IMG/VR virus record: IMGVR_UViG_3300025018_000003
Span: 26,707-90,706 of that record
Source: a virus
Lineage: Duplodnaviria; Caudoviricetes
Direction: 5' to 3' (one strand)
DNA length: 64,000 bases
Within the stretch, counting starts at the first letter, position 1. Each line of letters starts with the position of its first letter. Of this stretch, positions 870 to 62,626 are shown in pieces. The position numbers and the translations under genes were made by a program. The notes beneath the pieces are model-generated. The model saw only the letters and a list, made by a program, of their open reading frames with translations, was not told where the DNA came from and ran no database searches.

Positions 870-888
870 AATCCGTGACAGGAGGCTG

Positions 889-1566: not shown

Positions 1567-1652
1567 ACACACGAAAAGGCAAATCCTGGACCAGATCCCT
1601 CATTCTCCATCCTCGGATGTGAAATGTAGGTGCTCATGGCCGAAAGGGTCAT
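1563..1652 (-). CDS. 29-aa micro-ORF MTLSAMSTYISHPRMENEGSGPGFAFSCV
   Basis: Read by hand. ATGA overlaps at both ends with the flanking genes. Confidence 0.4.
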   Translation of the reverse strand: MTLSAMSTYISHPRMENEGSGPGFAFSCV

Positions 1653-3212: not shown

Positions 3213-3214
3213 GG

Positions 3215-3400
3215 TTATCGTGGTTTGTGACGGGATCTCCGTCGGTATTCGTCCTGCCAGCCCTTCCTCTCCTTGAACTCCCACCACCAGTCACGAATGC
3301 CCAGGTAGGCGAAGATGGAGAGCCAGAAGAGCGTGATCAGGACAAGTAGTCCCAGACCGATCAAGGTCTCGATGGACACGAAGACTTCAAGTGTGATCAC
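3215..3400 (-). CDS. Small membrane protein
   Basis: GTG start overlapping the upstream TGA (GTGA). One hydrophobic segment followed by a basic tail. Confidence 0.6.
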   Translation of the reverse strand: MITLEVFVSIETLIGLGLLVLITLFWLSIFAYLGIRDWWWEFKERKGWQDEYRRRSRHKPR

Positions 3401-3984: not shown

Positions 3985-4136
3985 GCTTCGTATTCCTCTG
4001 GTTTGAACAGGTAGTCACAGTGACCATCCATGTCCGGTTTCATGTTGCCTGAGAACTTGTCAGGATTGCCGTTGGGGCGGACACAGTCGCGGGCACAGGA
4101 GTACCCGGGACAGTATTCGACATCGAGGTAGATCAT
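3906..4136 (-). CDS. Small Cys-rich hypothetical protein (MIYLDVEYCPGYSC...)
   Basis: ATGA overlap with the upstream micro-ORF; four Cys residues. Confidence 0.55.
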   Translation of the reverse strand: MIYLDVEYCPGYSCARDCVRPNGNPDKFSGNMKPDMDGHCDYLFKPEEYEAWKRTSPQTPTSSTATSSSTPDAPSL

Positions 4137-4246
4137 GACAGGCACCCCAGGATGAATAGGCCGATCAGGACCATGAGGCCCAGTCCCAGGAACACCACAA
4201 AGGTGCGCCACAGGAAGATCAGCAGAGTGCGTGTGGATTGGTTCAT
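4133..4246 (-). CDS. 37-aa single-TM peptide MNQSTRTLLIFLWRTFVVFLGLGLMVLIGLFILGCLS
   Basis: Read by hand. Hydrophobic, and its stop overlaps the next start. Confidence 0.6.
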   Translation of the reverse strand: MNQSTRTLLIFLWRTFVVFLGLGLMVLIGLFILGCLS

Positions 4247-4311
4247 ATCTTTTTTGGTATGTCAGATGTGACATCTCACTCGGTGGAAGAGTCGCCTCTC
4301 CCACCGGTGAA

Positions 4312-46007: not shown

Positions 46008-47153
46008 ATGAACCCTCTCGTTTTCATCCAGAACACCGGAGCGCTGGCCAATGGAACGGCCACGCATCCCTCGGGTGTGACTGCTGGCAAAATCGCCGTG
46101 TTCAACGCGGCAACTGGAGCCGAGCATTCTTTCGAGGACACTGCAGCTCCGACGAAGTTCTACATCGTGCAGGGTCACGCGACCCAGCCCATCATCTCTC
46201 CGGTCATCGAGAAGGCCAACATCGTCAGTGCCGAGTACCTCGCGTACGCGGCTCCGGTGAAGAAGCTCGTGACCGTGACCAGCATCCCTGCTGGACCCAC
46301 TGGCGGTGACGTCTACACCGTGAAGGTGGTGAACCTCAAGACGGACACGGAGCCCTTCACGCGGGCGAACTACGAAGTCGTGGTCCCGGCCTCCCAGACG
46401 GATGAGGACTCGATCTACGCTCTCGTGGCAGCCAACAAGGCGGATGCCAACCGCTTCGTGGACTTCGGTGCCAACAAGATCGCCACTGGTGTCATCTCCA
46501 CTATGTCGGGCACGCTGGGCATCACCATCACCGATGGTGAGACCGGCAACGCGGCTACCTACACCCAGGCCTACGCGGTTTCCCTCGCAGCCACGGGTGC
46601 AGCCTTCGTGTCTGCCCACGGTGCTTCGATCCTGGCGACCTTCGGTATCACGGTGACCTTCGATACCGCGACCTTCACCTTCACCGGCGGCGTCGGTTCT
46701 GGTGACTGGACGGCGGTGGACGACGGCTCTGGTGGCTGCACGATGGCTGCTGCGTCGTACACGGAAGCCACTTCGCTGCTCATCCAGTCGGATACGGTGG
46801 ATGACAACTTCCAGGTGTTCCTGAACGACACCACGGGAAGCGGTATCTCGACGGCGACGGCGACGGTGACCACGGCGTGGAAGCAGGGCTCGGGTTCCGC
46901 CGCTCAGATCTACGCGCTGGAGCTGGAGTCGCATGGCCGTCGCGGCAACTACTACCGCGAGACCCCGCAGCCGCTCACGCCGGAGACCTTCGCTGACACG
47001 TCGACGCCGCTGAACTACAATGTCTGGAACTTCCTGGTGAAGACGAACCAGGACGGTCAGATCCCGGTCAAGGGCAACCAGTACTACATGGTGGTGCTGG
47101 CCGCGGCCTCGGCGGTCACGGGCGACTTCAATACCTTCCTCGCCGTGTCGTAG
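46008..47153 (+). CDS. Virion structural protein (auxiliary capsid-like) carrying the shared module
   Basis: Thr/Ala-rich; module at about 46488-46745. Confidence 0.7.
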   Translation: MNPLVFIQNTGALANGTATHPSGVTAGKIAVFNAATGAEHSFEDTAAPTKFYIVQGHATQPIISPVIEKANIVSAEYLAYAAPVKKLVTVTSIPAGPTGGDVYTVKVVNLKTDTEPFTRANYEVVVPASQTDEDSIYALVAANKADANRFVDFGANKIATGVISTMSGTLGITITDGETGNAATYTQAYAVSLAATGAAFVSAHGASILATFGITVTFDTATFTFTGGVGSGDWTAVDDGSGGCTMAAASYTEATSLLIQSDTVDDNFQVFLNDTTGSGISTATATVTTAWKQGSGSAAQIYALELESHGRRGNYYRETPQPLTPETFADTSTPLNYNVWNFLVKTNQDGQIPVKGNQYYMVVLAAASAVTGDFNTFLAVS

Positions 47154-47182
47154 GAGGGCTCCCAGATGGGAGAGACGAAGTA

Positions 47183-47220
47183 ACAGAGGGCGGTCTTCCA
47201 CTTGGGGGACCGCCCTCTGT
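47183..47220 (+). terminator. Intrinsic terminator
   Basis: ACAGAGGGCGGTCTTCC-ACTT-GGGGGACCGCCCTCTGT, then GTTT. Confidence 0.75.
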
Positions 47221-47300
47221 GTTTACAGCACTTTTTCACGGGAGAGATCTGTCGCGTCCGGAGTACTTCTTGCGTTGGATCTTCCAAACAGGGTCGACTC

Positions 47301-47588
47301 ATGCTCTTCTTGTTCAATATGCTGATGCAGGACGTTCCAGATGGCGTCGTGGATGCTGTCACCAGGATCTCTCCGTACGACGGTGCCGCCTACGGAGGAC
47401 TGGTGCTCGTCCTCCTCATCGTCCTGTACCTGCAGTACAAAGACAAGCAGAAGCAGGCGGAGGCCCTTGAGAAAGCAGTCGAGACTCTCAACGACATCGA
47501 GATCAGCCTGAGAGCCATCCCCGAGTTGAAGTTGCTGATTCTCTCGAAACTTCTCAACACCAATCCACCGAACACCAACGATGCTTAA
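47301..47588 (+). CDS. Single-TM holin-like protein
   Basis: YGGLVLVLLIVLYLQY TM segment plus coiled coil. Confidence 0.55.
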   Translation: MLFLFNMLMQDVPDGVVDAVTRISPYDGAAYGGLVLVLLIVLYLQYKDKQKQAEALEKAVETLNDIEISLRAIPELKLLILSKLLNTNPPNTNDA

Positions 47589-48096
47589 CGGTCTGAAAAG
47601 AATGTTCCAGACCATCACCAGACACCGTGCTGCTCATGAAGCTCTGCGTCATCAGAGCCTCAAGATCAAGGCGTTGCGCCTGCGTGAAGTGGAACCTCGT
47701 GAAGTGCCCATTGAGTTCCGTTCCTCCGGGTTCTGGGACCGGGTGAGCAACAACCTTGGCCACGGCATCATGTTTGCCAGGACATCCTACCAGACGGAGG
47801 ATGAGGCCGCAATTTCCTGTCACTGGGAGGAGGGTGCGATGATGCATCCGCACTGCCACCCAGAGTCAGAGGAATACGTGTACGTCATCCGTGGGGCGTT
47901 GAAGGATCACGTCAAGGGCGCGATCCTTTACCCAGGGGAGAGGGTCTCTATTGAGGATGTGCTGGCGGGCACGGCGCAAGCCCAGCCCTACGTGATTCCA
48001 GCTGGCCAGGCACACTTCCTGCAGGCACTTGAACCTGACACCTTCTTCGTGATCAAGTTCAAGCGTCAAGATGGCAACACAGATAACTGTCAATGA
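47581..48096 (+). CDS. Cupin-domain protein
   Basis: HPHCHPESEEYVYVIRG and YVIPAGQAH cupin motifs. Confidence 0.8.
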   Translation: MLNGLKRMFQTITRHRAAHEALRHQSLKIKALRLREVEPREVPIEFRSSGFWDRVSNNLGHGIMFARTSYQTEDEAAISCHWEEGAMMHPHCHPESEEYVYVIRGALKDHVKGAILYPGERVSIEDVLAGTAQAQPYVIPAGQAHFLQALEPDTFFVIKFKRQDGNTDNCQ

Positions 48097-48697
48097 CGGT
48101 GGGAAGTCAGGGAAGCTCTCCCTGTGGCTCAACGTCATCCTACTGGCCCTACTCGTAATTTGTTGGGTCACAAGACCCAAGGTCTCTGAACCAGAGATCG
48201 TGGAACGGGTGGAGACTGTTGTAACGGTGGACACCGTCTACGTGGACAGGACCATCCGTGAGATCGCGGTGGTGACCGACACCGTCGTGGTTCACGACGA
48301 TGGGCCAACCATACCGCCCAGTATTCTGGGCACTCTTCCCCCATTGCGCACATACTACCAGAGCTTCGCTGACACGCTCATCATGGGCAACATCACGTCT
48401 CTGGTGCGCGGAGAACTCCTTGAGCAGCGGATGTTCTACAAGCCGCTGCAGCCTGACTACGTCCTCCGAACTGTGACCAACACTGAGTACAGGACTGAAA
48501 GAATCGTGGTTCGCCAGAGTTTCTTCCAGGCTGGTCTCGAAGTTGGCATGGTGGATGCAGGGCTGCAGGTCAACCCGATGGTAGGGTACACCCACCATAC
48601 CGGACACTCTGTCTTCTACCGGTACACTCCCTGGGAAGGAGGTGGTCACGCCGTCGGTTTTCTGACACCAATCAGAATCCCTTGGATCAACCTATGA
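48071..48697 (+). CDS. Membrane-anchored spanin-like protein
   Basis: N-terminal TM, VDTVYV repeats, C-terminal beta-rich G.G.G segment typical of Bacteroidota phage spanin-like genes (from memory). Confidence 0.55.
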   Translation: MATQITVNDGGKSGKLSLWLNVILLALLVICWVTRPKVSEPEIVERVETVVTVDTVYVDRTIREIAVVTDTVVVHDDGPTIPPSILGTLPPLRTYYQSFADTLIMGNITSLVRGELLEQRMFYKPLQPDYVLRTVTNTEYRTERIVVRQSFFQAGLEVGMVDAGLQVNPMVGYTHHTGHSVFYRYTPWEGGGHAVGFLTPIRIPWINL

Positions 48698-49917
48698 CTA
48701 TCGAAGTAGCCAAGAGCTTCCTCCGAGAGCATCCAGGATACCTAAGATGGGGAGATGGTCGACTCTCAGAGAAGCTCGGGCTCTCGGTGTCACTGGTCCG
48801 CGACCTGAGATCCATCATCAAGGTAGAACAGGCTGTGGGCATCGACACAGAGTCCACGAATCAGGGAGGGTACCAGCCCCCCTCGTCCTTCCAGTTCCTC
48901 AGCTCCAACCCCTACGAGGAGTTCCTGGCTGAGCGTGGGATCAACCCCGACGACGTCGTCTCCGTCAAGCACTGGCAGAACATGGCCGGTGATCCACGCT
49001 TCAGCGTGGTGACGTGTGACAACGATGAGCTGACGCAGGCGCAGATGGAAGACGGCATCATCAAGATGCTGTCCGAGTACTCCCCGGCTCTGTACGTAGA
49101 GCCTCCGCAGGTGCAGGGAGAGCGGTGCGCGGTTGTACACCTCTACGACGCACACGTCGACAAGATCGTGCTCTCCAGCGAGGTCTACGACGATGACTCC
49201 GATCTGACCCTGGAAGAGCGCTTTCAGCAGCTCGAAGACAGGTTCGATGAAGTGGTGGCTGGTCTGGTCCACCACAACGTGGAGAAAGTCTTCTTCCCAG
49301 TCGGGAACGACTTCTTCACCACCAACGGTCCTGAGCAAGGTACCAGACGCGGTACACCCCAACGTACCATTGTGCCCCACGAAGAGGTCTTCTTGCGTGG
49401 GGTTCGTTTTTATCTGGACTGCATCACCAAGCTCCTGTCGGTGGCCAACCAGGTGGAAGTCATCGTCATCCGCGGCAACCATGACACGGATGCCGTCTTC
49501 TACCTCGGCGTGGCTCTTCAGATGGCCCTGGGACGAGAGGAGCGGGTGAACGTCAACATGAGCCGCCATGCCCGCAAGTACTTCGAGTACGGCATCTGGG
49601 GCTTCGGCTTCGGCCATGGAGACAACGAGAAGCGGAACATGGACCGCATGCCTCTCTGGTTCGCCCAGGAAGGCAAAGCCATCTGGTACCGGACCAAGTT
49701 CCACGAGCTGTTCCTGGGAGACGTCCACCACAAGGAGGTCTACAAGTTCAGATCATCCTACGACGGGGTGGGCATGACCGCCCACTTCATGCGGAGCACC
49801 AACGGGGTGGACCAGTGGCACTCTGATTCCGGCTGGACCGGCATCCCGAAGGAGATCTCCGCCACCGTCTACCACCGTTCCACTGGACGCAAGAACTCTG
49901 TGTCCGTTTCCTGGTAA
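48694..49917 (+). CDS. Metallophosphoesterase with N-terminal HTH-like segment
   Basis: YDAHVDK, VGNDFF, RGNHD, FGHGD and GDVHH motifs. Confidence 0.85.
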   Translation: MTIEVAKSFLREHPGYLRWGDGRLSEKLGLSVSLVRDLRSIIKVEQAVGIDTESTNQGGYQPPSSFQFLSSNPYEEFLAERGINPDDVVSVKHWQNMAGDPRFSVVTCDNDELTQAQMEDGIIKMLSEYSPALYVEPPQVQGERCAVVHLYDAHVDKIVLSSEVYDDDSDLTLEERFQQLEDRFDEVVAGLVHHNVEKVFFPVGNDFFTTNGPEQGTRRGTPQRTIVPHEEVFLRGVRFYLDCITKLLSVANQVEVIVIRGNHDTDAVFYLGVALQMALGREERVNVNMSRHARKYFEYGIWGFGFGHGDNEKRNMDRMPLWFAQEGKAIWYRTKFHELFLGDVHHKEVYKFRSSYDGVGMTAHFMRSTNGVDQWHSDSGWTGIPKEISATVYHRSTGRKNSVSVSW

Positions 49918-49922
49918 CATCG

Positions 49923-50216
49923 ATGTCCGAGTACACCGACAAGAAGCTTGGTTTCCATGAACCAAACTTGGCGTACGATTTGCCGGAGATGATCATACGG
50001 ATCAGAACGCTCATCAGGAATGGTGAGTTGGAGGGACTCTCGACGTTCCTAGACAACGCCCAGGTCCTACTGGACGTCGTCAAGAGGGATGTGGAGTCTC
50101 ACCTTCTGCTCCTTTCACACGAGCTGGACAGAGTCCGAACCCTCTTGAACCATGATCACGCTGAATCAGGCGGCCTACAACCTTCTCAACCAGGCACGAG
50201 GGGGCAGGTCCAGTAA
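49923..50216 (+). CDS. Hypothetical protein
   Basis: ORF. Confidence 0.5.
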   Translation: MSEYTDKKLGFHEPNLAYDLPEMIIRIRTLIRNGELEGLSTFLDNAQVLLDVVKRDVESHLLLLSHELDRVRTLLNHDHAESGGLQPSQPGTRGQVQ

Positions 50217-50859
50217 CAACGAGTACTTGAGTCTGGAGCAGATCAAGTACTGGATCCGGTACTACAGGGCGCTTCTCATCCGCCGTGATGAGGAGCGCTT
50301 CTCCCGTGTTGAGGAGCACGCACAGACTATCTCTGTGCCCATCAACACCACCAATGTGAGCTGGTCCTCCGGGGCGCAGACCTTCCCCGAGAATGCGTCA
50401 TCCGCACCTGCGGACACGGCTATCTCTGACAACCCTCTTCCGACCATCGTCAGGTTGAAGGATCGCCCTGCCGTCATGCAGGTGCTGATCGAGGGAACGC
50501 GGCAGCAGATCCCCTACGTGGACAGCCGTAGGAGCGTCTGGAACCAGTACGACAAGTACACCTCGGCATCCCGTCGCTGCTGGATCCACAAGGGGTTCCT
50601 GTACGTCAGCAACTGGGATCTGACTGGTGTAGCGACTCCGGTGGTAGAACTGACGGCGATCTTCGAGGATCCGGAGCAGGCCTACAACTTCAATCTGGGA
50701 GCCAACTCCCCCTGGGACGACAACCTCAACGAATTCCCGCTCTCCGCGGATCTGCTGCAGCAGGTCACCCAGAGTATCATGAGTGGGGAACTGCAGGTCA
50801 TGGCGTCAGCGCCATCTGACCACTCTCTCGACAACCTTCCTGACAGACAAGCTGAATAG
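50152..50859 (+). CDS. Conserved crAss tail ring-type protein
   Basis: MITLNQ.AY...QIKYWI...RA.LI...FEDP pattern. Confidence 0.72.
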   Translation: MITLNQAAYNLLNQARGGRSSNNEYLSLEQIKYWIRYYRALLIRRDEERFSRVEEHAQTISVPINTTNVSWSSGAQTFPENASSAPADTAISDNPLPTIVRLKDRPAVMQVLIEGTRQQIPYVDSRRSVWNQYDKYTSASRRCWIHKGFLYVSNWDLTGVATPVVELTAIFEDPEQAYNFNLGANSPWDDNLNEFPLSADLLQQVTQSIMSGELQVMASAPSDHSLDNLPDRQAE

Positions 50860-50861
50860 CC

Positions 50862-51275
50862 ATGGCCAACACCGCATACGCCAAGTTCCTGCAGGCCCTG
50901 GGGACGGGATCCATCGATCTCTCCGCCGGGACCTTCAAGATCGCCCTCGTGGACACGGGGACGTACACCGTCGACGCCTCTGATGCCGGTCACGAGTTCC
51001 TCAGTGACCTCTCCGGTGTTCTGGAGACTGCCACCCTTGTCACCCCCACCTGGGTTGCCCGGGTCTTCGATGCCGACGACTTCGTGGGCACCTTCCCTGA
51101 CGGCGGGGGCGGCTTCACAGGGGAAGCCCTCGTCATTTACAAGGACACTGGCGTGGCTGCCACCAGCCCGCTGATGTTCTACCTGGACACGGTCACAGGT
51201 CTGCCCATCACCCTGGACGGTACCGATGACTCCCTCACCTTCAACGCCTCTGGCATCTGGAAACTGGGTAGCTGA
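50862..51275 (+). CDS. Small virion structural protein of tail-fibre modules
   Basis: IDL....KIALV...FDADD...GI..L pattern, common next to tail-fibre genes. Confidence 0.6.
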   Translation: MANTAYAKFLQALGTGSIDLSAGTFKIALVDTGTYTVDASDAGHEFLSDLSGVLETATLVTPTWVARVFDADDFVGTFPDGGGGFTGEALVIYKDTGVAATSPLMFYLDTVTGLPITLDGTDDSLTFNASGIWKLGS

Positions 51276-51277
51276 TC

Positions 51278-51574
51278 ATGCTGAACGACCTTCTACAGAA
51301 GCTCATCTCTATCTTCTCAACCACACACGACGCTGCCACTGGGAAGAAGGGATTCGTGGCCATCGCGGACACCGATGCTCACACTGGCGTCTTCTTCGCC
51401 ATCACGACAGTGGGTGGAGCAGCGGTTCTCAACTCCGCAGGCACTATCTCGCGGGAAGGAGACTCCGTCATCAACAACCACTCCATCCCTGACGGCTTCA
51501 CCCTGTACGGCAACTGGTCGTCGGTGCAGCTGGCTTCCGGCAACGCCTACTCCTACCACGACGGAGAGGTCTGA
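51278..51574 (+). CDS. Hypothetical beta-rich protein
   Basis: ORF coupled by TGATG. Confidence 0.65.
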   Translation: MLNDLLQKLISIFSTTHDAATGKKGFVAIADTDAHTGVFFAITTVGGAAVLNSAGTISREGDSVINNHSIPDGFTLYGNWSSVQLASGNAYSYHDGEV

Positions 51575-52488
51575 TGCACAATCTGCTGGGCAACAACAAG
51601 ATCTCCAACGGAGGGGCCAACAGGGGAGGGAAAACCTTTCCGTACCTCTTTGCTATGGCTTCCTCCTCCAACGCTACAGTCAATAGTGGTCTGTACCGCT
51701 ACCTCATTGATCCCGCTACCGGCTTGCTAAGTGGAGAGACCCTTTTGATTGATCACGGATTGAACGCATCGACTGGGATCAATAAACTGGTGTACATCCC
51801 GAAAACGAAGTTGGTCTATTTCATCAACGGCAAAACCGGGGTCGGAAATGTTGAGGCTTGCAGTGTACTGACTGGAGATCTGGTCTACTCTTTCGATGCG
51901 GCGTACACCAATTGCCCTGGCCTGTATGCAGATGAAACTCATCTCTACCACATGGCTGGGTCCAACACGGTTGTTAAGCGTCTACCGTTGGACCTGAGTT
52001 CAGAAGAAGCGGCCTTCACCTTCAATGCCACCTGCTACGATTTTGTACCAAGTGGACTGGCTGATTACCCTCTGTTCGCCAGATTCACTGGAGGCTCTTA
52101 CTCGTACCACAAGAGTAAGCTGGCAGCAAATGATAGAGTTCAGATTGTGACTGGTATATCCTCCTTCTACGCGCAATCTCGACTTCCAATCGTGTCCAGT
52201 GATGGTCTTTCCTTCTGGGCTTCTGGTGACAATCCTAATAATCCGGCGTTCCAACTCTCCCACAAACGAAGCATGGTAGACGGCACCATTGAAATCACGT
52301 ATTTAGGAAACGGTACGCACTACCTCAATGGGGCCTGTTTCGGAAAGACCAACGAGCATCTTTTTGCCGTGAACGGACTTGGTAGAACCATATACGCGTG
52401 GCCCATTGACGGAGGGACCATCATCCCCAACGTGTTCAGTGGCAACAACTACTCTATAATGTTCATCGCTTACCTTCCTGAGCAATAG
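51574..52488 (+). CDS. Beta-propeller-like putative receptor-binding protein, lower GC
   Basis: Repeated short beta-strand/aromatic pattern; visibly more AT-rich codons. Confidence 0.6.
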   Translation: MHNLLGNNKISNGGANRGGKTFPYLFAMASSSNATVNSGLYRYLIDPATGLLSGETLLIDHGLNASTGINKLVYIPKTKLVYFINGKTGVGNVEACSVLTGDLVYSFDAAYTNCPGLYADETHLYHMAGSNTVVKRLPLDLSSEEAAFTFNATCYDFVPSGLADYPLFARFTGGSYSYHKSKLAANDRVQIVTGISSFYAQSRLPIVSSDGLSFWASGDNPNNPAFQLSHKRSMVDGTIEITYLGNGTHYLNGACFGKTNEHLFAVNGLGRTIYAWPIDGGTIIPNVFSGNNYSIMFIAYLPEQ

Positions 52489-53813
52489 TGGATAGACACC
52501 AGCACGATAACCTGGCCACCCTGCTCCGCATCATTGCGGATAGGATCTACAATCCCAACTACTCTCTAGATGGGACTGGCCCTGACTACTCGTTGGTGGG
52601 GGCTATCGCTGCTTCTTTAGGTCTGGACAGCGCGGCCAGAGACGGCTTCTCTAGGTACCGAGTCTCCAACCCGGTCACCATCTTTGACAGCAAGCTCCTG
52701 TTCGACAAGGCTCCACTGGTATGGGATGAGGAAACGATCTCTGGCTCAGGAATCTCCAGCACCTGGTCGAAGAATCGTGCGTCGGTAACGCTGACATCGA
52801 CCAATGAGACGGCCTGTAACTTCGTCCGACAGACCTTCCAGCGGTTCAACTACCAGCCGGGCAAGGGCAACTTGGTAGAGGTGACTGGGGTCCTGTACTC
52901 TCCGCAGGTCGGGAGAACGATCACCCTTGGACAGTTCGATGCCCAGAACGGCTTCATGTTCAGGGATGACGCTGGCACATACCAGTGGGGTATCCGCTCC
53001 TACAAGACCGGCTCTCCGGTTGATACCTGGTTCACCCAGGACGAGTGGAACATCGACAAGATGGACGGCACAGGGCCTTCCGGGATCACCGCCGACTTCA
53101 CCCAGAACCAGATCTTCATCTGGGACTATCAGTGGCTCGGAGTTGGTAGAGTCCGCGTGGGTCTGGACATCGACGGCAAGATCTTTTACTGCCACGAGTT
53201 CAACCACGCCAACGTCACCCAGGGAGTGTACATGTCCACTCCGAACCTCCCGTTGAGGTGGGAGATGACGACGACTGCCGATACCCCAGCTACCAGTGTC
53301 GAGGTCGTCTGTGGTGCAGTCCTGTCGGAAGGTGGATCCAACGACACTGGCATCCTGCGGTACGAGAGCACCAACGGAGCCCACGTCGACGCCAACGCGG
53401 CTGATACCTGGTACCCCATCATCGGAATCCATCTGAAGACCACCCACATTGGATGCACGGTCAAGCTAGCATCCATGTCGATGATCAACGAGCAGAGCCA
53501 GGACTTCGAGTGGGCCATCGCCATGAACCCTACCGTCACAGGCTCTCCGACCTGGAATCCGATGACCAACAGCGCCGTTGAGACCATGCTGGGAGCGACG
53601 GCCATCACTGTATCATGGGACACCGGGATCTGGTTCACCGGAGGAATGGTGAAGTCTGGTGCTTCTGCTGATCAGGTTGCCTCAGATCTCGAAAATGCTG
53701 TGACCCTGGGGTCAGACATCAGCGACAACCGAGATCAGATCTTCCTGTGTGCCAGGCCGCTGGCGATCAACGCAGACATCGAAGCAACCCTTTCGTGGAG
53801 AGAGATTCAGTGA
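52488..53813 (+). CDS. Virion structural protein with lectin/LamG-like beta domain
   Basis: GTG start; RQT..RFNYQPGK, Q...D.WN.DKMDGTGPSG and YQWLGVGRVR motifs widespread in environmental phages. Confidence 0.7.
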   Translation: MDRHQHDNLATLLRIIADRIYNPNYSLDGTGPDYSLVGAIAASLGLDSAARDGFSRYRVSNPVTIFDSKLLFDKAPLVWDEETISGSGISSTWSKNRASVTLTSTNETACNFVRQTFQRFNYQPGKGNLVEVTGVLYSPQVGRTITLGQFDAQNGFMFRDDAGTYQWGIRSYKTGSPVDTWFTQDEWNIDKMDGTGPSGITADFTQNQIFIWDYQWLGVGRVRVGLDIDGKIFYCHEFNHANVTQGVYMSTPNLPLRWEMTTTADTPATSVEVVCGAVLSEGGSNDTGILRYESTNGAHVDANAADTWYPIIGIHLKTTHIGCTVKLASMSMINEQSQDFEWAIAMNPTVTGSPTWNPMTNSAVETMLGATAITVSWDTGIWFTGGMVKSGASADQVASDLENAVTLGSDISDNRDQIFLCARPLAINADIEATLSWREIQ

Positions 53814-54298
53814 GAAGAAACAGATCACAGAAGGACATCTTCCAGTTCTACGTCTCCCGAGGAGGAAATCTGGATTGGAAGGTCTGGGCAGACGTCGTGG
53901 CCAGGTTCAACAACTCGGTCATGGACGAGATCATCATGGAGGGACGTGAGTTCGACATGGGCGCTGGACTCTCCAGGATCTGCGTGCTGCGCATTGATCG
54001 CAACCACGCAACCCCCAGAGTCGACTGGGTTTCAACCCGCAAGCTGAAAGAAGAACTCCTGGTTGAAGGAAAGAATCTGATGTCGGAAGACACTCCGGAT
54101 GGAGAGCCGTACCTGGTCTACTACACCGACGACTGGTACTGCCGCTTCTTCTGGGAGAAGAGATCCTGTATGGTGCGGAACAAGAGCGCCTACAGGTTCG
54201 ATGCATCACGCGGACTCAAGGGCAACAAGACCAAGCTGGTCCAGCATTTGCTGTCCGATGACCTTGCCTACCTCAAGTACGACAAAGCAAAACCATGA
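53810..54298 (+). CDS. Conserved crAss-like protein (HU/IHF-related)
   Basis: GTG start overlapping TGA; VDWVSTRKL...VYYTDDWYCRFFW pattern. Confidence 0.6.
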   Translation: MRRNRSQKDIFQFYVSRGGNLDWKVWADVVARFNNSVMDEIIMEGREFDMGAGLSRICVLRIDRNHATPRVDWVSTRKLKEELLVEGKNLMSEDTPDGEPYLVYYTDDWYCRFFWEKRSCMVRNKSAYRFDASRGLKGNKTKLVQHLLSDDLAYLKYDKAKP

Positions 54299-55326
54299 AA
54301 CCTCAATCCAAAATCATCGCGGCTCCTGGGGCGACCGTTCTGATTCCCCTCTTCCGCAGCGAGAAGGACTCCGCTCCAGTGGGGTTCGTTAAGCTGTCGG
54401 ACCTCTCCACCGTGGACTCGGCCTACGACACCTCGGACTTCGCCACCGATCTGGAGGCAGCCATCCAGGCCCAGGGAATCGACCCTGCATCTGACCTGGG
54501 TGTTGCCGTAGCCAACCTAGTCGGGGCCCTGACGACTCCCGTGGTTGTCACGGCAGCAGAGGCCCAGGAAACCCTTGCTTGGGATGAGTCCAACTACATG
54601 ACCACGCTGGTGGATGCTGTTGGGCATGTCATCCGGGCAGCCACCTCTGGCGTCTACATCGATCAGGCCACCATCGGAGACAGCGGCTTCCGCGTCAAGA
54701 GCTACGCCCACGAAGTCGACTTCGACAATGGGGACATCTTCAATACCGTGCTTACAGGAGCCATCGAGGCAGGATGTCTGCTGCTCGGTGTCTCCCTGAC
54801 GGTGGACCGGGATCTGATCTCCGACCAGTTGATCACGGTCTCCGGCACCAACGGCAACCTCGTACTGACCATCGATGGCGTCGACTACACAGAGGCCTTC
54901 GACACCAGTGCGACGGTGACGGTCCAGAACTTCCTGACCACCCACGGAGCCGCTCTTCTTGCTGCTGGAATCATTGCCGTCGAGGAATCTGCTGCGGTCA
55001 TCAAGATCTCGTCCAATACGCTGGTGGCTATCTCCGACGCCAACTCCACCGGGGACATGGCGGGTGTGGTGACAGTGAACGCGAGCTTTGATCTCGGTCT
55101 GGGCTCCGGAGATGTGGACGCCTTTGGTGCAGCCATCGCTCTGACAGCTGGTGTTCTGGGTGCAGGTGAAGTCGTCAGCATCGAGGATACAACCCTCACC
55201 AGCCCGCTGTACTTCACGGCGGCAGACGACATCGCTCTTGCTGGAGACGTCACCACCTTCGGTGGCGGCAAAGTCACGGTGACTGTCGTGATGCTGGACG
55301 TCAGATTCGGCACCATGAACCCGTAA
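54295..55326 (+). CDS. Virion structural protein carrying the shared module
   Basis: Module at about 54832-55062. Confidence 0.75.
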   Translation: MKPQSKIIAAPGATVLIPLFRSEKDSAPVGFVKLSDLSTVDSAYDTSDFATDLEAAIQAQGIDPASDLGVAVANLVGALTTPVVVTAAEAQETLAWDESNYMTTLVDAVGHVIRAATSGVYIDQATIGDSGFRVKSYAHEVDFDNGDIFNTVLTGAIEAGCLLLGVSLTVDRDLISDQLITVSGTNGNLVLTIDGVDYTEAFDTSATVTVQNFLTTHGAALLAAGIIAVEESAAVIKISSNTLVAISDANSTGDMAGVVTVNASFDLGLGSGDVDAFGAAIALTAGVLGAGEVVSIEDTTLTSPLYFTAADDIALAGDVTTFGGGKVTVTVVMLDVRFGTMNP

Positions 55327-55345
55327 CCTTGAACCAGGGCCTCTC

Positions 55346-56404
55346 ATGATCTACAGAACCATCTCTGCTGGCAAGGTTATCGCCAAGATCTACCGGGACC
55401 TCGGCAACACCATTCAGATAGCTGACTGGGAGCAGGATGCTTTTGAGTGGGTCGGGGAGGCCCTGGAGCACATCGGTGCCGGTGTCCAGCTGACCAAGAA
55501 GAACGACGTGCTGGAGATCTCCTCATTCAAGGCGATCCTACCCAGCGATCTGGTCCAACTCATCGACGTCTTCTACGCTCCTTCGGTGACTACTGACACG
55601 GTGACCGGGCAGAGCTTCGAATGCACGGTCTCCGGGGACAACCTTTCGGCACCGCCGCTGGACAACATCGTCACCCTCGTAATCAACGGGACCTCGTACT
55701 CCGAGATCCTGGATACGGACAACGCCACCACAGCTGCGAACTGGGTGACCACCCACGGAGCCACCCTGTTGGCTCTGGGCATCACAGCCACCTCCGTCGG
55801 AGACGTCATCACACTGGAGGTCGAAGATCCTCTGGCCGACGCTACCGTGGTGGACGGCTCCCAGATCATGAATGTGATGGTTGTCGAGACCGCGGCTGTC
55901 ACAGGTATCCCGGATGCAGTGAAGTACCCGCTCAACAGGAGTGGGGCATCCATCCATGCAGGGGTCCACACGCAGATCCGCGGCGAGAGCCCGGGCTTCG
56001 TGGGAGAGTCCTACGTGCTGAACCCTGACTACATCCACGTCAGCTACGAGACCGGCTACATCTCCATCTCCTACCTGGGATTCCCTCTGGACGCCAACGG
56101 CTATCCGCTGGTGCCGGATGACATCTCGTACAAGGAGGCGATGTTCTGGTACATCCTCAAGAAGCTGATGATGCGTGGATGGGTTCATCCAGGCGGATTC
56201 AACTACCAGTTCGCGGAAGCCAACTGGCAGCGGTACTGCACGCAGGCCCGCAACGCAGCCAACATGCCGGACATTGGTCAGTACGACCAGTTCCTGCGGT
56301 CCTGGAGGCGTCTGGTGATGCCACCGACGTCGAGGGAGCAATTCTTCGATGAGGATGACTTGCGCAACCCGAACTGGAGCTACGGACTTAGCGAATACGA
56401 GTAA
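55346..56404 (+). CDS. Tail ring-type protein with inserted shared module
   Basis: WVGEALEHIG...LP.DL...Y.LNPDYI...GYPLVPD...EA.FWYI; insertion at about 55622-55875. Confidence 0.78.
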   Translation: MIYRTISAGKVIAKIYRDLGNTIQIADWEQDAFEWVGEALEHIGAGVQLTKKNDVLEISSFKAILPSDLVQLIDVFYAPSVTTDTVTGQSFECTVSGDNLSAPPLDNIVTLVINGTSYSEILDTDNATTAANWVTTHGATLLALGITATSVGDVITLEVEDPLADATVVDGSQIMNVMVVETAAVTGIPDAVKYPLNRSGASIHAGVHTQIRGESPGFVGESYVLNPDYIHVSYETGYISISYLGFPLDANGYPLVPDDISYKEAMFWYILKKLMMRGWVHPGGFNYQFAEANWQRYCTQARNAANMPDIGQYDQFLRSWRRLVMPPTSREQFFDEDDLRNPNWSYGLSEYE

Positions 56405-56410
56405 ACAACC

Positions 56411-56956
56411 ATGCCTGCAAACGGACCCCACATCGTTCCTCTGGTCTACGACAAGCTGCAGTACTTCAGCGACCAGGGCCGCATTCTGCAGTACCTGACC
56501 AGGGTCAACCGCGCTGACGGCAACACCAAACAGCTGATCCAGCGGATCTTCGACTTGGTGGACGGCAACACGACGGCCACGGTCCTTGGGTGGATCGAAG
56601 AGATGCTCTCAGAGGTTGCGTACAACCAGCAGCCGAAGATCTTCTACACCAACGAAGGCGAGGACTTCGTCATCGAGATCGATCTGGAGGCTGGCCGCGA
56701 CTTCACCGGGTACCTGCTGACGGCGCGTTTGGCAAGCGGACTCACCCTGATCTCTACCAACGACCAGGCTGGAGACAGCTACGACAACGCACCCACGCAG
56801 TACATCCAGATCCCGGACAACACCCTGACGGCAGGGACCTTCGTCAAGATCTACTGCAATCTGGAGCATCCTGACCTCTCCAACCTGGCGTCTGGAGACG
56901 TGGCCACGGTGCTGACCAAGGCCTACATTTACGTCGAACCCCTTGTTGATGCGTAG
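56411..56956 (+). CDS. Hypothetical structural protein
   Basis: ORF with acaacc-ATG leader. Confidence 0.7.
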   Translation: MPANGPHIVPLVYDKLQYFSDQGRILQYLTRVNRADGNTKQLIQRIFDLVDGNTTATVLGWIEEMLSEVAYNQQPKIFYTNEGEDFVIEIDLEAGRDFTGYLLTARLASGLTLISTNDQAGDSYDNAPTQYIQIPDNTLTAGTFVKIYCNLEHPDLSNLASGDVATVLTKAYIYVEPLVDA

Positions 56957-57801
56957 TGGCTACCAGATTCAGACAGATCACTGCTGCACGGCGACCCAGG
57001 TTTGTCAGATCTGCGAACTACCTTGAAGCAGAGATAGACATCCCTCGGGGCATGCGCGTTGAAAGCCTCCTCGTGGAGGCTGAGGCGTTGTATGCACCTG
57101 AGTACGGAGAAGTCGATCTGATGGCGGTGCTGAACCGCCTGGATGAGATCAGCACGTTCTACCTGGCCTCTCTGGTTCTGAACGCTCACACCATGGATCT
57201 GCTGACCCTGCAGACCGTGGCTTCGACGGTGTACCAGCCAACGTATGCGGTTACTCCGAATACGTTGAGCATTGCGGCGATGATGACCGAGGCTTCGTCG
57301 GTGTACACCCCGACGTACGAGGAGCCGGTGCTGATGACGGTACCGCTGGTCACGGAAGCAGAGACCCTGTACCTGGCCGCGGTCATCCAGTGGACGATCA
57401 ACTTCAACGAGTCTCCTGGCCTGATCACGGTTCCGGAAACAGTGTACACGCCGGTCTACGCGGCCTCTCCGGTACAGATGTCGCTGGATCTGCTGTCCAA
57501 TCCTGGCACACTGTATGCTCCCACTGTCGCTGAAGGGTTCAACCCGGAAACCAGTACTCCATACGACCTTATCATACAGGAGTGGCTGTCTGATTGGGGA
57601 GCGGAGTTCTACACTGGCAACAAGACCTTCACCGAAGTCACCACTGACTTCCTGGAAGTCTCTGGGGCCTACTCCATCGACACCACTGCAGCCAACGCCA
57701 CAACCACTGAGAGAAGGCTTCAGGGAAAGGACCCGCAGGTGGATCCTGCCTGGACAGAAGCCAACCCAGATCCTCCTGTTCTTGTGACCTGGACCCCATA
57801 G
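56956..57801 (+). CDS. Structural protein with about six ~22-aa (T/A)(V/L)YxPx(Y/V) repeats
   Basis: ALYAPEY, TVYQPTY, SVYTPTY, TLYLAAV, TVYTPVY, TLYAPTV. Confidence 0.75.
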   Translation: MATRFRQITAARRPRFVRSANYLEAEIDIPRGMRVESLLVEAEALYAPEYGEVDLMAVLNRLDEISTFYLASLVLNAHTMDLLTLQTVASTVYQPTYAVTPNTLSIAAMMTEASSVYTPTYEEPVLMTVPLVTEAETLYLAAVIQWTINFNESPGLITVPETVYTPVYAASPVQMSLDLLSNPGTLYAPTVAEGFNPETSTPYDLIIQEWLSDWGAEFYTGNKTFTEVTTDFLEVSGAYSIDTTAANATTTERRLQGKDPQVDPAWTEANPDPPVLVTWTP

Positions 57802-57804
57802 GAC

Positions 57805-58911
57805 ATGTTTTACACCAACGTCGGTTCACCCAACAAGCTGTCGCTCAACGACACCTACCATGACGCCGCAATCAGGCTCGTGGGATGGATCACTGGTGCT
57901 GCCAGTTCTCCGTGGGCGGAGGTAACCGGGTCTGCTCCTACCCCGACCTGGCTGCAGCCCTACGCCTCCACTGCGGTCTCAGGCTACAGTTCTGCGACGT
58001 ACAATGGGCCATCGTGGCACACCACGATGTATCTGACCACGGACCCAGGTCTCCTGGCGGGCACTCCTCACTGTGTACTGGTCAAGTTCGTCGTCGGGTA
58101 CCAGGGGCTCGGCATGATGATCATTGATACTGCGGTTGGTGATCCAGACAACGTGGCAGATTGGAACCTGCACTACGCGTACTACGATCTTGCAAACAAC
58201 AGCACCTCTTCGTATGGCTACGATGAGGTTCAGGGAAAACTTCTTTCCTGGTCTTCTGGCTCTATTCTCGCCCCTGTCGCAGACGTCAACAAGATCGAGA
58301 TCAACATCTGGATCTGGGATGAGTGTTTTGCGATCCTCTGCAAAGATACCGGCAACACCTCCTATGATTACCACGGAGGAGGTGTTTTTTGCTGGCACCC
58401 TGCAGTATCCGGAGTGATTGGAGCTGCTCGCAGTGACGCCCCGCACATCTGGCTTGTGAGCGGTGGATACCAAAATTCAAGAGACACCTATATCACTGAA
58501 GGCCATGTAGTAGTGCAGATTCCGTCTGATGGAGGTCCTTCTGGTCGAGGCACCATCAACACACAGGTAAGTGGCGGTTTCAACGTCAACAAGATGGGTT
58601 GGTCTCCTGAACTCGGCCTTCACATTGAGACAGAAGCCGTGGATGTCAATGGGGACAACACCATCCAGCGACTGAACTTCATTTTTGGACCATCTGGTGA
58701 CAGTGCGTTCTCAATCGGCTGTTTCCTAAGTGGTCCATGGGATGAAGGACCTCGGTGCATCCGACGTGGACTGCTCTCGACCAACACCTATCTCGACACC
58801 CCTTACGTCATCGATGGAGTCACGTACACCCTGGCCAAGGACGCCTTGGTTACCACTGTGCCAGGATACGATTGTCTCTGGATCCTCCCTCACTCTGACT
58901 TAACGGTCTAA
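57805..58911 (+). CDS. Tail-fibre-like protein A1 (paralog of 58915)
   Basis: Shares SPWAEVTGSAPTP.WLQPYA.TAV and SGPW.EG.R with the next gene. Confidence 0.75.
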   Translation: MFYTNVGSPNKLSLNDTYHDAAIRLVGWITGAASSPWAEVTGSAPTPTWLQPYASTAVSGYSSATYNGPSWHTTMYLTTDPGLLAGTPHCVLVKFVVGYQGLGMMIIDTAVGDPDNVADWNLHYAYYDLANNSTSSYGYDEVQGKLLSWSSGSILAPVADVNKIEINIWIWDECFAILCKDTGNTSYDYHGGGVFCWHPAVSGVIGAARSDAPHIWLVSGGYQNSRDTYITEGHVVVQIPSDGGPSGRGTINTQVSGGFNVNKMGWSPELGLHIETEAVDVNGDNTIQRLNFIFGPSGDSAFSIGCFLSGPWDEGPRCIRRGLLSTNTYLDTPYVIDGVTYTLAKDALVTTVPGYDCLWILPHSDLTV

Positions 58912-58914
58912 CCC

Positions 58915-60276
58915 ATGTTCTACGAAGACTTCAGCACCCGTGGTACTCTCATCTCAGTAGGAGACACCTACCATGATGTGGCCTTGGCGATCAAGGACGC
59001 CCTTGTTGGAATCCCTGGTTCTCCATGGGCAGAGGTCACTGGAAGCGCTCCGACCCCAGTGTGGTTGCAGCCCTATGCTACCACGGCGGTTGCAGGACGC
59101 GACAGTTCTACGGCAGCTTATAATGGCTGGGATGTACACGCCACCATGTACATGACGACGGATGCTGGTCACAAGACCAAGACCATCACCGTGGCTGGCA
59201 GCGCAGGTACCCTGATCATCGACATCGATGGCACCGACTACTCCCAGGCATTCAACACCTCGGCTGCCCAGACTGCTACCGATTGGCTCACCACGCACAC
59301 TGCCACGCTCGCTGCCTTGGGATCTCCCATTGTGGCTACCGCAGGAGGGTCTGCGGAGATCGTCCTGTACAAGGCCGCTGCAGAGCCCGTGTTGACTGAT
59401 GATTCTACGGGAGGCATGTCCTTTACTTGGTCGGCCAACTGCGTGTTGTTCAGGATCGTCATCGGCTATCATGGCGTCGTAGGTACGATCATTGACACCC
59501 ATCAGGGAAATCCGGTCACCACTGCAGAATGGTGCATTCTTGGTCGACCTTCGACCATATGGAATCCGGACACCAATAGCGGCACTTATTACGCAGCTGC
59601 AGACTCTCCTGACTTCCTGTTCAAGTACGACACCAACGAGTTGACTTGTCCAACAAGCGGAAACTTCCGATTCTACATCTGGATGTGGGACGAATTCTTC
59701 GCCATCATAACCACTTCTGCATCCAACTCCATCAACGGTCATGGTGGAGTCATGGTCTGGCATCCTGCAGAAAATGGTATTGAAGGTTTGAGCAGAGCCA
59801 GTTTCCCACATATCTGGGGTATGATGGCCAAGCACACTGTCTACCTGGGCAACAGCGTACCCTATGCTGAATCATTTCCAAGACTTCCATATTTCAACGA
59901 CTATGCTCGTGCAGCAGACTACCGCTGTGACATCAGTGGTATTGAGACAAGGTCTATTGAGTGGATCCCAGAGTTCGGATTCCTGACCTCTGGTCCTGGG
60001 GTGAATGGAAACATCTTCGTGCAGCGGGTGGCGTTCCACTCCGTCATCACCGTCAACGAGAATACGGACTACTCCTTCTACAGCGGGCCCTGGACAGAAG
60101 GAGTGCGCCTGATCGATCATAGTAGCGGGTACACCGAAGACCCGCTCTACGGAGCCCTGAAGAAGATCACCATTGGAGGAGTGAGCTACATCCAGTGCAA
60201 ATGTCTGTTCGACGGGGGTGGCTATGCCAGCAAAGATGCGGTATGGCTTCTTCCTCTATCTGACCTGACCCTCTAA
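58915..60276 (+). CDS. Tail-fibre-like protein A2 with inserted shared module
   Basis: Paralog of 57805; insertion at about 59185-59424. Confidence 0.75.
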   Translation: MFYEDFSTRGTLISVGDTYHDVALAIKDALVGIPGSPWAEVTGSAPTPVWLQPYATTAVAGRDSSTAAYNGWDVHATMYMTTDAGHKTKTITVAGSAGTLIIDIDGTDYSQAFNTSAAQTATDWLTTHTATLAALGSPIVATAGGSAEIVLYKAAAEPVLTDDSTGGMSFTWSANCVLFRIVIGYHGVVGTIIDTHQGNPVTTAEWCILGRPSTIWNPDTNSGTYYAAADSPDFLFKYDTNELTCPTSGNFRFYIWMWDEFFAIITTSASNSINGHGGVMVWHPAENGIEGLSRASFPHIWGMMAKHTVYLGNSVPYAESFPRLPYFNDYARAADYRCDISGIETRSIEWIPEFGFLTSGPGVNGNIFVQRVAFHSVITVNENTDYSFYSGPWTEGVRLIDHSSGYTEDPLYGALKKITIGGVSYIQCKCLFDGGGYASKDAVWLLPLSDLTL

Positions 60277-60968
60277 TGGCTGATTCCCACTACAAGAGCT
60301 ACACCATCAAGAAGGCTTCCGACGTCAAGAGCGTCGTCCGGAAGAGCTTCATCACCAGGGCTCAGTACGAGTTCGAGGGTGGGAACGCGGTTGTATCCGG
60401 CACACTGGTGCTGGAGAACATCATGGGGGAGGAGGACATCTTCCGCTATGATGACATGGAGCCCTCAGGTCGGGCAGACAACGCCCTGACTGGCAGGATC
60501 ATCTGGTCGTCTGGCGTCAAGGCCAACTCCAGGGTCTACTACTCCCCTGAGACCGCCACCCTGCACCTGGACTCAGGTCTGCAAGATGATCCAGTTGAAA
60601 CGGATGGGGTGGTCTACCACGAGATCTTCCTCTCTTCGCTGGACATCGACACCCTGTACGCCTTCCAGGTTGAGTCTTACGATGCCGACGGCAACAGTCT
60701 GCGCAGTGAGACCTACTGGTTCCACACACACGGGTCCATTGTTCTTGAAAACAGTGGCCTGGATATTGTGGTTGCTCTCCTGGTCGAGGTCATCGATCTT
60801 GCGAAGAACGTTGAGCAGGAGGTCCCCACAACTGTTGTTGCCCTTTCGTCGATCCTGTTCTCAGGAGATCTCTCCTCTGAGGTCGTTGTAGTTCAGGATA
60901 CCATCAACGTCGTAGAAACACTCACTCAGGATGAAGGCGAGTTCTTCACCGAAATCATCACCAGCTGA
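60276..60968 (+). CDS. Protein with FN3 / purple-acid-phosphatase-N-like domain
   Basis: IIWSS...NSRVYY...HEIFLSSL..DTLY.FQV.S.D..GN...S...F.T. Confidence 0.75.
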   Translation: MADSHYKSYTIKKASDVKSVVRKSFITRAQYEFEGGNAVVSGTLVLENIMGEEDIFRYDDMEPSGRADNALTGRIIWSSGVKANSRVYYSPETATLHLDSGLQDDPVETDGVVYHEIFLSSLDIDTLYAFQVESYDADGNSLRSETYWFHTHGSIVLENSGLDIVVALLVEVIDLAKNVEQEVPTTVVALSSILFSGDLSSEVVVVQDTINVVETLTQDEGEFFTEIITS

Positions 60969-60970
60969 CC

Positions 60971-62626
60971 ATGAATCCTCTTCAGATCAACCATAAGATC
61001 GCCATCGGAGAAGGTGATCTGGAACTCTACCACAGGGTCTCTATCGATGGCCACGTCGTCATCGAACAAAAAGGAGACTCGCTGGTCGGCAACTTCATGA
61101 AGCTGCTGTTCTCGTTCTGCGGTGGGATCCCTGCTCGCGGCGACATCTACGGCCACTACGACATCAACAATACCAACTACCACAACTGGTTTACTGGTGG
61201 TAGCATCACCAATGCGGTGTCTTCTGGTGCCAACACCATTCTGACCCTATCTGGAACAGCTTGGAGCACTTCAGAAGGAATCCAGGTCACTGGTATGATC
61301 GGTGACTGGGAGGCATGTAATGGGTTCTGGATCCCGGTTTCTTCTGGGCCTTCTACGGTAACCATTGCTGTCAACTCTGCTAGCTTCGGTGCCTTCTCTA
61401 CGGCCAACACTCCGTATGCGATCAAGAAGTGGCTGTCTGCAACCGCTGACTCCGAAAGATCAGAACAAAAAACCTTCGGCAGTCCGGTCATCAAGCTTGG
61501 CCGCAGTATAGATGCAATCGGTCTTGATGATCAGACTCTGGGTGACGAAGTCCTGAACGGGACAAGTCCTGGTCGTCTAGAGCATACTGATAACGTCATT
61601 GCCGTGCCTTCGTCTGATGGTAGCAACGTGGAACTGGCCATCTCTACCTCGGTGTCCAACAACTCAGGTGGAAGTATTGCTATCAAAGAAGCTGGTCTCT
61701 ACACATGGTTTACCGACTATCAGAGCGCGAACGATAACTGTTGGGTCCTGATCGCCAGAGATCTCTTCACCACGAACATCGCAGATGGAAAATCTGCATC
61801 CGTCGAATACAAAATTACTTCTGGGCTGAACGTGGAAGGTGGTCTCACGATGCAGTTTATGGAACTACTGCATCGACAGATATCTCTCTCGTCCACCTAC
61901 ATCACTGACATCAACAACACGGAAGACTTTGAACCCAACACTGGTGGAGCCTTCATGTTGGCCGGTGGATCTGGAGACAACATCCAGTACCCATCTTACA
62001 CTGGACTCTCCGGAGAGTGGGTAGGTGTCCAGATTGGTACCGGCAACACCGCGGTCACCACCGATGACTACAAAATGGAGACCAGGATCGCCCATGGTGA
62101 CGCCAGCATCCTCACAGTGACTGGTTCGTCTGGCAACTTGGTGATCAGTATCAACGCGGCGAACTACTCAGAGGCGTACTCGGCCAGCATCTCCACGACG
62201 ATAGCCAACTGGATCACCTCTCATGCAGCCACCCTCGCTGCACTTGGCACCCCGATCACCGCGATCCAGGGAGCAGGAGGTAACACCATCGAGCTGACTA
62301 GCAACGGTAGCGCTATCACTCTGGTCGACAACTCGACTGGCACCATGGCCTTCACGACGGTCAGGGAGATTCGGTACTACGGTCAGCTGGTAGAAAACTT
62401 CCAGTACGATACCGGAACTGGCCTGTCCAGCTTCGATGTTGTCCGGATCTTCGAGAACGTCTCAGGCGGGGATGTCATCATCAACGAGACCGGCCTCTAC
62501 GCCGCCAACCAGAACAGCTACGCAGACGGGGCCTACTGCATCGCCAGACACGTCCTTGCTGTACCTGTGACCGTCGCCACTGGAGAAATCCTCAAAGTCA
62601 CCTACACCTTTACTCTGCAGGTCTGA
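60971..62626 (+). CDS. Tail-collar/fibre-like protein B1 with two E.GLY repeats and the shared module
   Basis: NNSGGSIAIKEAGLY...IARD and NVSGGDVIINETGLY...IARH; module at about 62111-62353. Confidence 0.75.
   Translation: MNPLQINHKIAIGEGDLELYHRVSIDGHVVIEQKGDSLVGNFMKLLFSFCGGIPARGDIYGHYDINNTNYHNWFTGGSITNAVSSGANTILTLSGTAWSTSEGIQVTGMIGDWEACNGFWIPVSSGPSTVTIAVNSASFGAFSTANTPYAIKKWLSATADSERSEQKTFGSPVIKLGRSIDAIGLDDQTLGDEVLNGTSPGRLEHTDNVIAVPSSDGSNVELAISTSVSNNSGGSIAIKEAGLYTWFTDYQSANDNCWVLIARDLFTTNIADGKSASVEYKITSGLNVEGGLTMQFMELLHRQISLSSTYITDINNTEDFEPNTGGAFMLAGGSGDNIQYPSYTGLSGEWVGVQIGTGNTAVTTDDYKMETRIAHGDASILTVTGSSGNLVISINAANYSEAYSASISTTIANWITSHAATLAALGTPITAIQGAGGNTIELTSNGSAITLVDNSTGTMAFTTVREIRYYGQLVENFQYDTGTGLSSFDVVRIFENVSGGDVIINETGLYAANQNSYADGAYCIARHVLAVPVTVATGEILKVTYTFTLQV

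Follow-up and report, generated by a model that had tools for sequence, protein, structure and literature searches.

An unnamed accessory-domain family of the sheath-external and flagellin fold class recurs in six proteins encoded by a crAss-like phage genome

Introduction

Here we describe a module of about 88 amino acids that recurs in proteins encoded by IMGVR_UViG_3300025018_000003, a crAss-like phage genome of about 57% G+C, and whose closest described relatives are accessory domains of other phage and flagellar proteins. In crAss001, the auxiliary capsid protein (AuxCP) gp36 (PDB 7qof) has a PH domain into which a FliD-like 'FD' domain is inserted; the latter contacts the major capsid protein and helps to form the head-fibre pocket (PMC10172136). 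External, or additional, domains are known from the type-2 tail sheaths of PhiTE (D3), A-1(L), Mu and Milano (PMC11972413, PMC9230969); the external domain D3 with which the PhiTE sheath has been described (PMC11972413) is the segment that we take to be structurally matched by the module. The T7 nozzle protein gp12 contains such a domain at approximately residues 149-250, as does T4 gp11 at residues 83-183 (PMC6702177). Finally, immunoglobulin (Ig)-like domains, as far as they are presented from Fraser et al. 2006 in PMC9230969, are small accessory domains, in many cases arranged in tandem, that numerous phages carry on capsid and tail proteins and that are proposed to adhere weakly to cell-surface carbohydrates.

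The analysed stretch of 64,000 nucleotides (nt), hereafter the window, covers bases 26707-90706 of the 90,706-bp IMG/VR virus record, which carries a 127-bp terminal repeat and is rated complete. A preliminary description of the window had reported one module in five proteins and had proposed a new mobile surface-display or decoration domain. We found the module in six proteins. As a sequence family it is new and unnamed, its type of accessory domain is known, and its use in one virus is unusually frequent. Its fold, autonomy, insertion sites, distribution and faster divergence, which are described below, identify a promiscuous domain that has long been kept intact. Modularity and mobility stood, and the novelty at the level of the fold did not. 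We consider it probable that the copies are an outward accessory decoration of the particle.

The module differs from each of the described systems in sequence, context or fold. The present phage carries it in five proteins other than the AuxCP, and no such copies are reported for crAss001. It shares only 14-18% sequence identity with the sheath external domains, with no profile link, and has no significant sequence similarity to D2/D3 of flagellin FliC or D2-D3 of FliD, the best match being the NCBIfam FliD equivalog at E 0.06; moreover, the module occurs in virion proteins and enzymes, whereas FliC and FliD belong to flagella. It behaves like the phage Ig-like domains in being spread over virion proteins and arranged in tandem, but its β3-α-β4 fold with a long helix is distinct from the Ig sandwich. 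We obtained no Ig match in Pfam, and no chain described as Ig-like was present among the top structural matches.

Detection of the module copies

The five copies that had been reported were recovered at their places, with starts at 54832, 55622, 59185, 62111 and approximately 46491, and the observation proved to be larger than claimed, as a sixth copy was present in the muzzle protein together with a degenerate seventh. For this analysis, a profile (A6) was built only from 14 external, unrelated metagenomic proteins and was tested on 1,237 six-frame open reading frames (ORFs) of the whole genome. It detected six copies with E-values from 2.8e-16 to 4.9e-6, while the next ORF had an E-value of 1.2 (Table 1). 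Because a profile made from outside sequences alone recovers the six copies, an artefact of chance or composition was ruled out. The seventh copy, at approximately residues 81-169 of the muzzle protein, was weak in this genome (E 3e-5) and clearer in a sister genome (E 4.5e-9). In the crAss_MUZ protein these two copies occupy aa 81-169 and 1048-1131, against approximately residues 149-250 for the domain in T7 gp12.

Pairwise BLASTP comparison of the four tail-side copies gave 38-55% identity, spanning 81-85 residues for the three pairs among g54295, g58915 and g60971 and 42-66 residues where the ring copy was one of the pair. The capsid-side copy was 24-32% identical to three tail-side copies, and BLASTP gave no match between it and the ring copy. 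Over the whole module, paralogous copies were 22-42% identical.

We also observed a second fast-diverging stretch in the muzzle protein, at approximately aa 480-700, with 32-45% identity to the sister genome against approximately 70% overall. Segments of this stretch look faintly module-like by eye, and the profile score of -4 was below significance.

Fold and family status of the module

The copy in g58915 was folded with AlphaFold2 (AF2) from a 34-sequence alignment, giving a mean predicted local distance difference test score (pLDDT) of 94.4 and a predicted template modelling score (pTM) of 0.86. The model has the order β-β-β-α-β-β-β-β with an 18-residue helix, and as modelled the module is an autonomously folding β3-α-β4 domain. 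Its three-dimensional similarity to the sheath-external and flagellin/FliD class extended over the whole domain, and on this model it belongs to the fold class of the tail-sheath external, T7-like nozzle, T4 gp11 (in part), flagellin/FliD outer and crAss001 AuxCP domains. Each matched PDB range was an uninterrupted stretch from within a larger chain, which makes these counterparts peripheral inserted domains. Because these counterparts are both contiguous and internal, the ends of the module are suggested to lie close together, so that it could be inserted in a surface loop, or in tandem, without disturbing its carrier.

Membership of a sheath or flagellin insertion-domain class was what the preliminary description had named as evidence against a new domain. 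As the module matches this class, the novelty of the fold is gone, while the sequence family is still new and unnamed. No Pfam, NCBIfam or PHROG model matched the module above its cut-off in the whole proteins, the isolated modules or 111 matching proteins, and PDB sequence searches with g54295, g58915 and g60971 gave no match. Membership of a named family was thus rejected: the best sub-threshold hit was DUF6517, with 16.7 bits against a cut-off of 23.9, and the DUF6517, FLgD_tudor and PUA matches were sub-threshold noise.

Among 235 instances, the conserved columns were mainly Gly, Thr, Ala, Phe, Ile and aromatic core positions. A His that is invariant in the window copies was kept in only 62% of these instances.

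The copy in the auxiliary capsid protein

The carrier of the capsid-side copy, g46008, is an AuxCP homologue. Sequence comparison failed to establish its kinship with gp36: hhalign returned a probability of 6.5%, a PDB profile search found nothing, and the PF25650 match, which covers only residues 33-137, scored 23.7 bits, under the cut-off of 27. The relationship was settled by structure, since g46008 matched the solved gp36 structure, with the same architecture of a PH domain and an inserted FD domain. Its gene also lies in the corresponding position, after the ring-3/4 genes.

Upon superposition, the sheath external domains fitted two ranges of the g46008 model, 82-294 (outer) and 157-252 (the module), and the secondary structure revealed one β3-α-β unit broken by a complete second unit. 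Two superposing ranges and an interrupted unit indicate that the module is, in the model, nested at the tip of an outer subdomain of the same fold, the AuxCP's own. The FD region is 213 residues long in g46008, with two nested copies of the fold, and 163 residues long in crAss001 gp36. The inner copy corresponds to the module; it is undetectable by the module profile in gp36 and seven other AuxCP homologues, which are approximately 40-50 residues shorter at this site. The module is present at this site in more distant AuxCP homologues, with 19-45% identity, and the insertion is therefore old within one AuxCP subfamily.

Insertion into ring and tail-region proteins

The module interrupts g55346, tail ring protein 1, as had been claimed: the Pfam CrAss_Ring_1 match of this protein (140.1 bits, cut-off 27) is split in two by the module. 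The best PDB sequence match of g55346 is crAss001 gp43. An alignment of 15 homologues placed the module in a variable middle segment, where the 14 other aligned homologues have a different, shorter segment. Comparison of orthologous loci, which had been proposed as a check, revealed that among 35 ring-1 loci only the sister genome shares the module and 34 are without it.

Two paralogue pairs behaved as described. In pairwise alignment, g58915 contains approximately 92 residues, flanked by MY(L/M)TTD(P/A)G and (H/N)CVL, where g57805 has six. In g60971 the module directly follows AHG and is missing at the g62626 counterpart, a protein of 512 residues when completed by joining the 127-bp terminal repeat. 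The window copies thus lie within domains of their carriers. One homologue of g58915 (P0032) has the module at the same site, and the orthologue of g60971 in the sister genome, 56% identical, also does so. The backbone of g54295, with modules masked, clusters with those of P0001 (five modules), P0002 and P0003 (three each).

These comparisons bear on the proposal that the modules touch neighbouring subunits and act as a structural cement for capsid, ring and muzzle, a role among those proposed for additional sheath domains (PMC9230969). The coexistence of the module-free paralogues g57805 and g62626 with their module-bearing partners and the 34 related ring-1 loci without a module argue against it, and the fast divergence and free-standing tandem arrays described below would be ill-suited to a tightly packed interface. 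We therefore regard a cement function as improbable.

No fibre or receptor-binding match was found for g58915 or g60971 in Pfam, PHROGs or PDB sequences, and Atlas returned unnamed viral clusters, which for g60971 were only viral hypothetical proteins. Neither g54295 nor g58915 matched any family in Pfam, PHROGs or the PDB. Three of the six carriers, g54295, g58915 and g60971, are encoded between the ring-1 and muzzle genes or beside ring-1.

Distribution across viruses and cells

When 1.84 billion cluster representatives were searched with a profile, 337 proteins passed E<1e-3, and 63 passed E<1e-10; such names as the sources gave were all 'hypothetical'. In many of them two to nine stretches follow one another directly, with a period of about 90 residues. 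When the modules of 156 proteins were masked, at least 65 unrelated backbones remained, including muzzle proteins (nine, each with two or three modules), AuxCPs (seven), the g60971 family (six) and the g54295 family, in which other members have three to five tandem modules. In IMG/VR, the module is present on at least 121 contigs; 79 of the 80 fetched loci contained a single module-bearing ORF within ±8 kb. Five other complete or near-complete genomes had one to three copies in one or two proteins, compared with six to seven copies in six proteins in the present genome and five in four in its sister. None of 50,697 INPHARED records was matched at E<0.01 when one module was used in tblastn, and megablast of the 20-kb region gave no cultured-phage match.

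Proteins made almost entirely of modules were also observed. An 806-residue ORF on a contig binned as a Lachnospiraceae metagenome-assembled genome (MAG) (L138:3230-5647) contains six, and the 1,099-residue P0017 contains seven to nine in tandem; the two suggest a beads-on-a-string fibre made of the module.

A narrow pattern scan of 185,579 species genomes returned nine loci, mostly in Bacteroidota MAGs. One, on a 2.47-Mb contig, encodes a prophage tail protein, and two encode molybdopterin oxidoreductases of approximately 970 residues with Fe4S4, Molybdopterin and Molydop_binding domains, in which the module separates the catalytic from the dinucleotide-binding domain, at approximately aa 690-785. 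The presence of a virion-type domain within a cellular redox enzyme was unexpected, and it shows that the domain is not virion-specific.

Besides these oxidoreductases, the Bacteroidota contexts included a protein with a type IX secretion system (T9SS) sorting domain and positions beside BNR sialidase-like domains. The module may conceivably be a Bacteroidota-native envelope-binding domain that was captured by the crAss-like lineage and copied into six particle proteins, a scenario to which we give little weight. If it were true, the virion would be coated from capsid to muzzle with a host-derived adhesin, giving a multivalent, orientation-independent first contact with the host.

The extreme promiscuity of the module, which reaches even unrelated cellular enzymes, would also suit a neutral passenger, that is, a domain tolerated in surface loops that spreads by recombination with no benefit to the phage; the lack of a conserved functional motif points the same way. 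However, all copies are still open, profile-detectable and confidently foldable after divergence to 22-58% identity, four sites persist in both sister genomes, and AuxCP homologues with as little as 19-45% identity still carry the module at its AuxCP site. Copies that stay intact despite divergence, at sites that persist, indicate selection to keep the fold, which makes a neutral passenger very unlikely.

Comparison with the sister genome

The sister genome (G001, locus L008), the closest relative, has a record length of 88,239 bp, and its ring protein 1 shares 64% identity with g55346. Sites common to both genomes are those of the AuxCP, ring protein 1, g60971 and both muzzle positions. In every carrier shared by the two, the module ranks lowest, or among the lowest, in conservation. 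The identity of the module against the rest was 47 vs 84% in the AuxCP, 43 vs 73% in ring protein 1, 47 vs 58% in g60971, 58 vs 69% in the muzzle protein and 41 vs 70% for its N-terminal copy. A recent duplication was ruled out: copies share only DNA patches of 25-78 nt with 72-88% identity, and since similarity between copies is confined to such short patches, the duplications must be old. A FastTree phylogeny (235 instances, 90 columns) was poorly resolved, grouping only orthologous pairs and some copies on the same backbone.

The divergence is also relevant to the main rival of an adhesive role, in which each copy is a docking socket for the same protein partner or partner family, such as head fibres, tail fibres or whiskers. 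It is supported by how the crAss001 FD domain and the A-1(L) gp31 insertion domain behave. A single conserved partner, however, fits poorly with orthologous copies that diverge faster than their carriers or with the low identity between paralogous copies noted above. Furthermore, we found no conserved surface-polar motif, and the module also occurs in tandem arrays and cellular enzymes. Shared docking is, in our judgement, unlikely, although it stands above the other alternatives.

The sister genome is without g54295, g57805 and g58915. When the region 51278-60276 of the window was compared, the sister genome was found to lack g51278, g51574 and g52488 (phrog_1645 virion structural protein) as well. 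In their stead it encodes a 723-residue protein, the first 188 residues of which match g56956 (281 residues). A shared N-terminal anchor with an exchanged C-terminal part and neighbouring cassette looks like a module exchange of the tail-fibre type.

Proposed role

The account that we consider probable is that of an autonomous inserted domain, duplicated in the distant past. In a clade of environmental Bacteroidota phages, ancient events of domain duplication and insertion would have produced the copies, which would project from the particle exterior as an accessory decoration. Their most likely effect would be a weak multivalent adhesion to host-surface polymers, and lateral stabilising contacts may occur in addition. 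We tentatively ranked adhesion, the role proposed for Ig-like and additional sheath domains (PMC9230969), first, followed by fibre docking, with cement and neutral passenger lower.

Several points weigh against adhesion. The conserved positions include no polar cluster hinting at a ligand site. The module lies inside two cellular oxidoreductases, and therefore its role need not be host-cell adhesion. The crAss001 FD domain makes protein-protein contacts, which favours docking (PMC10172136). Exposure and binding in the virion of this uncultured phage are what we infer, and the virion status of g54295, g58915 and g60971 is taken from gene position only.

Our results define an unnamed family of 337 cluster representatives, for which there is no Pfam or NCBIfam model, that could enter curation, and they provide a partial annotation for many structural proteins that environmental Bacteroidota phages encode and that are listed as 'hypothetical'. 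They indicate that an outer domain of the flagellin/sheath type acts in crassviruses much as Ig-like domains do elsewhere and can nest in its own fold. They also mark insertion-tolerant, fast-evolving and presumably exposed sites on capsid, ring and muzzle, which would help in engineering laboratory phages for display and in interpreting future cryo-EM maps. No new mechanism is revealed; what is notable is the sixfold use in one phage, the nesting within its own fold and the presence in cellular enzymes.

Genome setting

The phage appears to be a podovirus-like crassvirus, and none of the ORFs scanned was noted to be a sheath gene. Its genes run in the order ring 3/4, ring 3/4, g46008, ring 2 (g50152), ring 1 and muzzle, with other genes between g46008 and ring 2, between ring 2 and ring 1, and between ring 1 and muzzle; this order mirrors that of crAss001, gp34-gp35-gp36 ... 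gp40 ... gp43-gp44 (PMC10172136). The two genes directly upstream of g46008, g44617 and g45276, gave weak CrAss_Ring_3_4 matches, both under the Pfam cut-off. The muzzle protein (crAss_MUZ, E 1e-41) is encoded by an ORF beyond the window, past the record end, and passes PF25731 and PF25729 with 143.6 and 27.9 bits against cut-offs of 27. Whereas gp43 and gp44 are adjacent in crAss001, approximately 8.6 kb of extra genes separate ring 1 from the muzzle gene here.

Table 1. Positions of the module copies, their carriers and related features. Window positions are given unless stated otherwise.
Feature	Position	Strand	Length or residues	Remarks
Module copy in AuxCP	46473..46760	+	aa 156-251	External profile E 4.9e-6
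Module copy in g54295	54820..55080	+	aa 176-262	External profile E 2.8e-16
Module copy in ring protein 1	55607..55891	+	aa 88-182	External profile E 2e-11
Module copy in g58915	59170..59439	+	aa 86-175	External profile E 1.8e-14; copy that was folded
Module copy in g60971	62096..62368	+	aa 376-466	External profile E 1.4e-7; A1 profile E 2e-38
Sixth module copy, in muzzle	Genome 3838-4089, outside window		aa 1048-1131	E 3e-21
g46008, AuxCP homologue	46008..47153	+	381 aa	
g54295	54295..55326	+	343 aa	No assigned role
g55346, tail ring protein 1	55346..56404	+		Pfam CrAss_Ring_1 (PF24228) E 1.2e-40, two stretches
g57805	57805..58911	+		Module-free paralogue of g58915
g58915	58915..60276	+	453 aa	Presumed virion protein from gene position
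g60971	60971..62626	+	551 aa	
g62626	62626..63999	+		Module-free paralogue of g60971; extends beyond window and record end
Muzzle gene	Genome 697-5682, outside window		1,661 aa	
Molybdopterin oxidoreductase	L133:3919-6828, Bacteroidota MAG contig JACPRZ010000050.1			Canonical module E 1e-22
Molybdopterin oxidoreductase	L135:2389-5310, Bacteroidota MAG contig JAVHPR010000277.1			Canonical module E 1e-21

Some neighbouring genes were also recorded. The block between ring 1 and muzzle (window 56411-63999 and genome 1-701) includes an Amidase_2 protein at genome 3-701. Amid the structural genes, between the AuxCP and ring protein 2, a gene resembling a DNA-repair exonuclease (window 48682-49917; phrog_704, E 1.5e-41; weak Metallophos match) is present and is kept in the sister genome. 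Also among the virion genes, a 171-residue ORF (window 47581-48096) has a motif that is cupin-like by eye only (HPHCHPESEEYVYVIRG ... IPAGQAHF) and is kept in the sister genome with 62% identity. Finally, g60276 (window 60276-60968, 230 residues), located between the two module-bearing paralogue pairs, gave a weak, sub-cut-off match to PF16656, the fibronectin-type N-terminal domain of purple acid phosphatase (E 0.001), and its counterpart in the sister genome is 55% identical.

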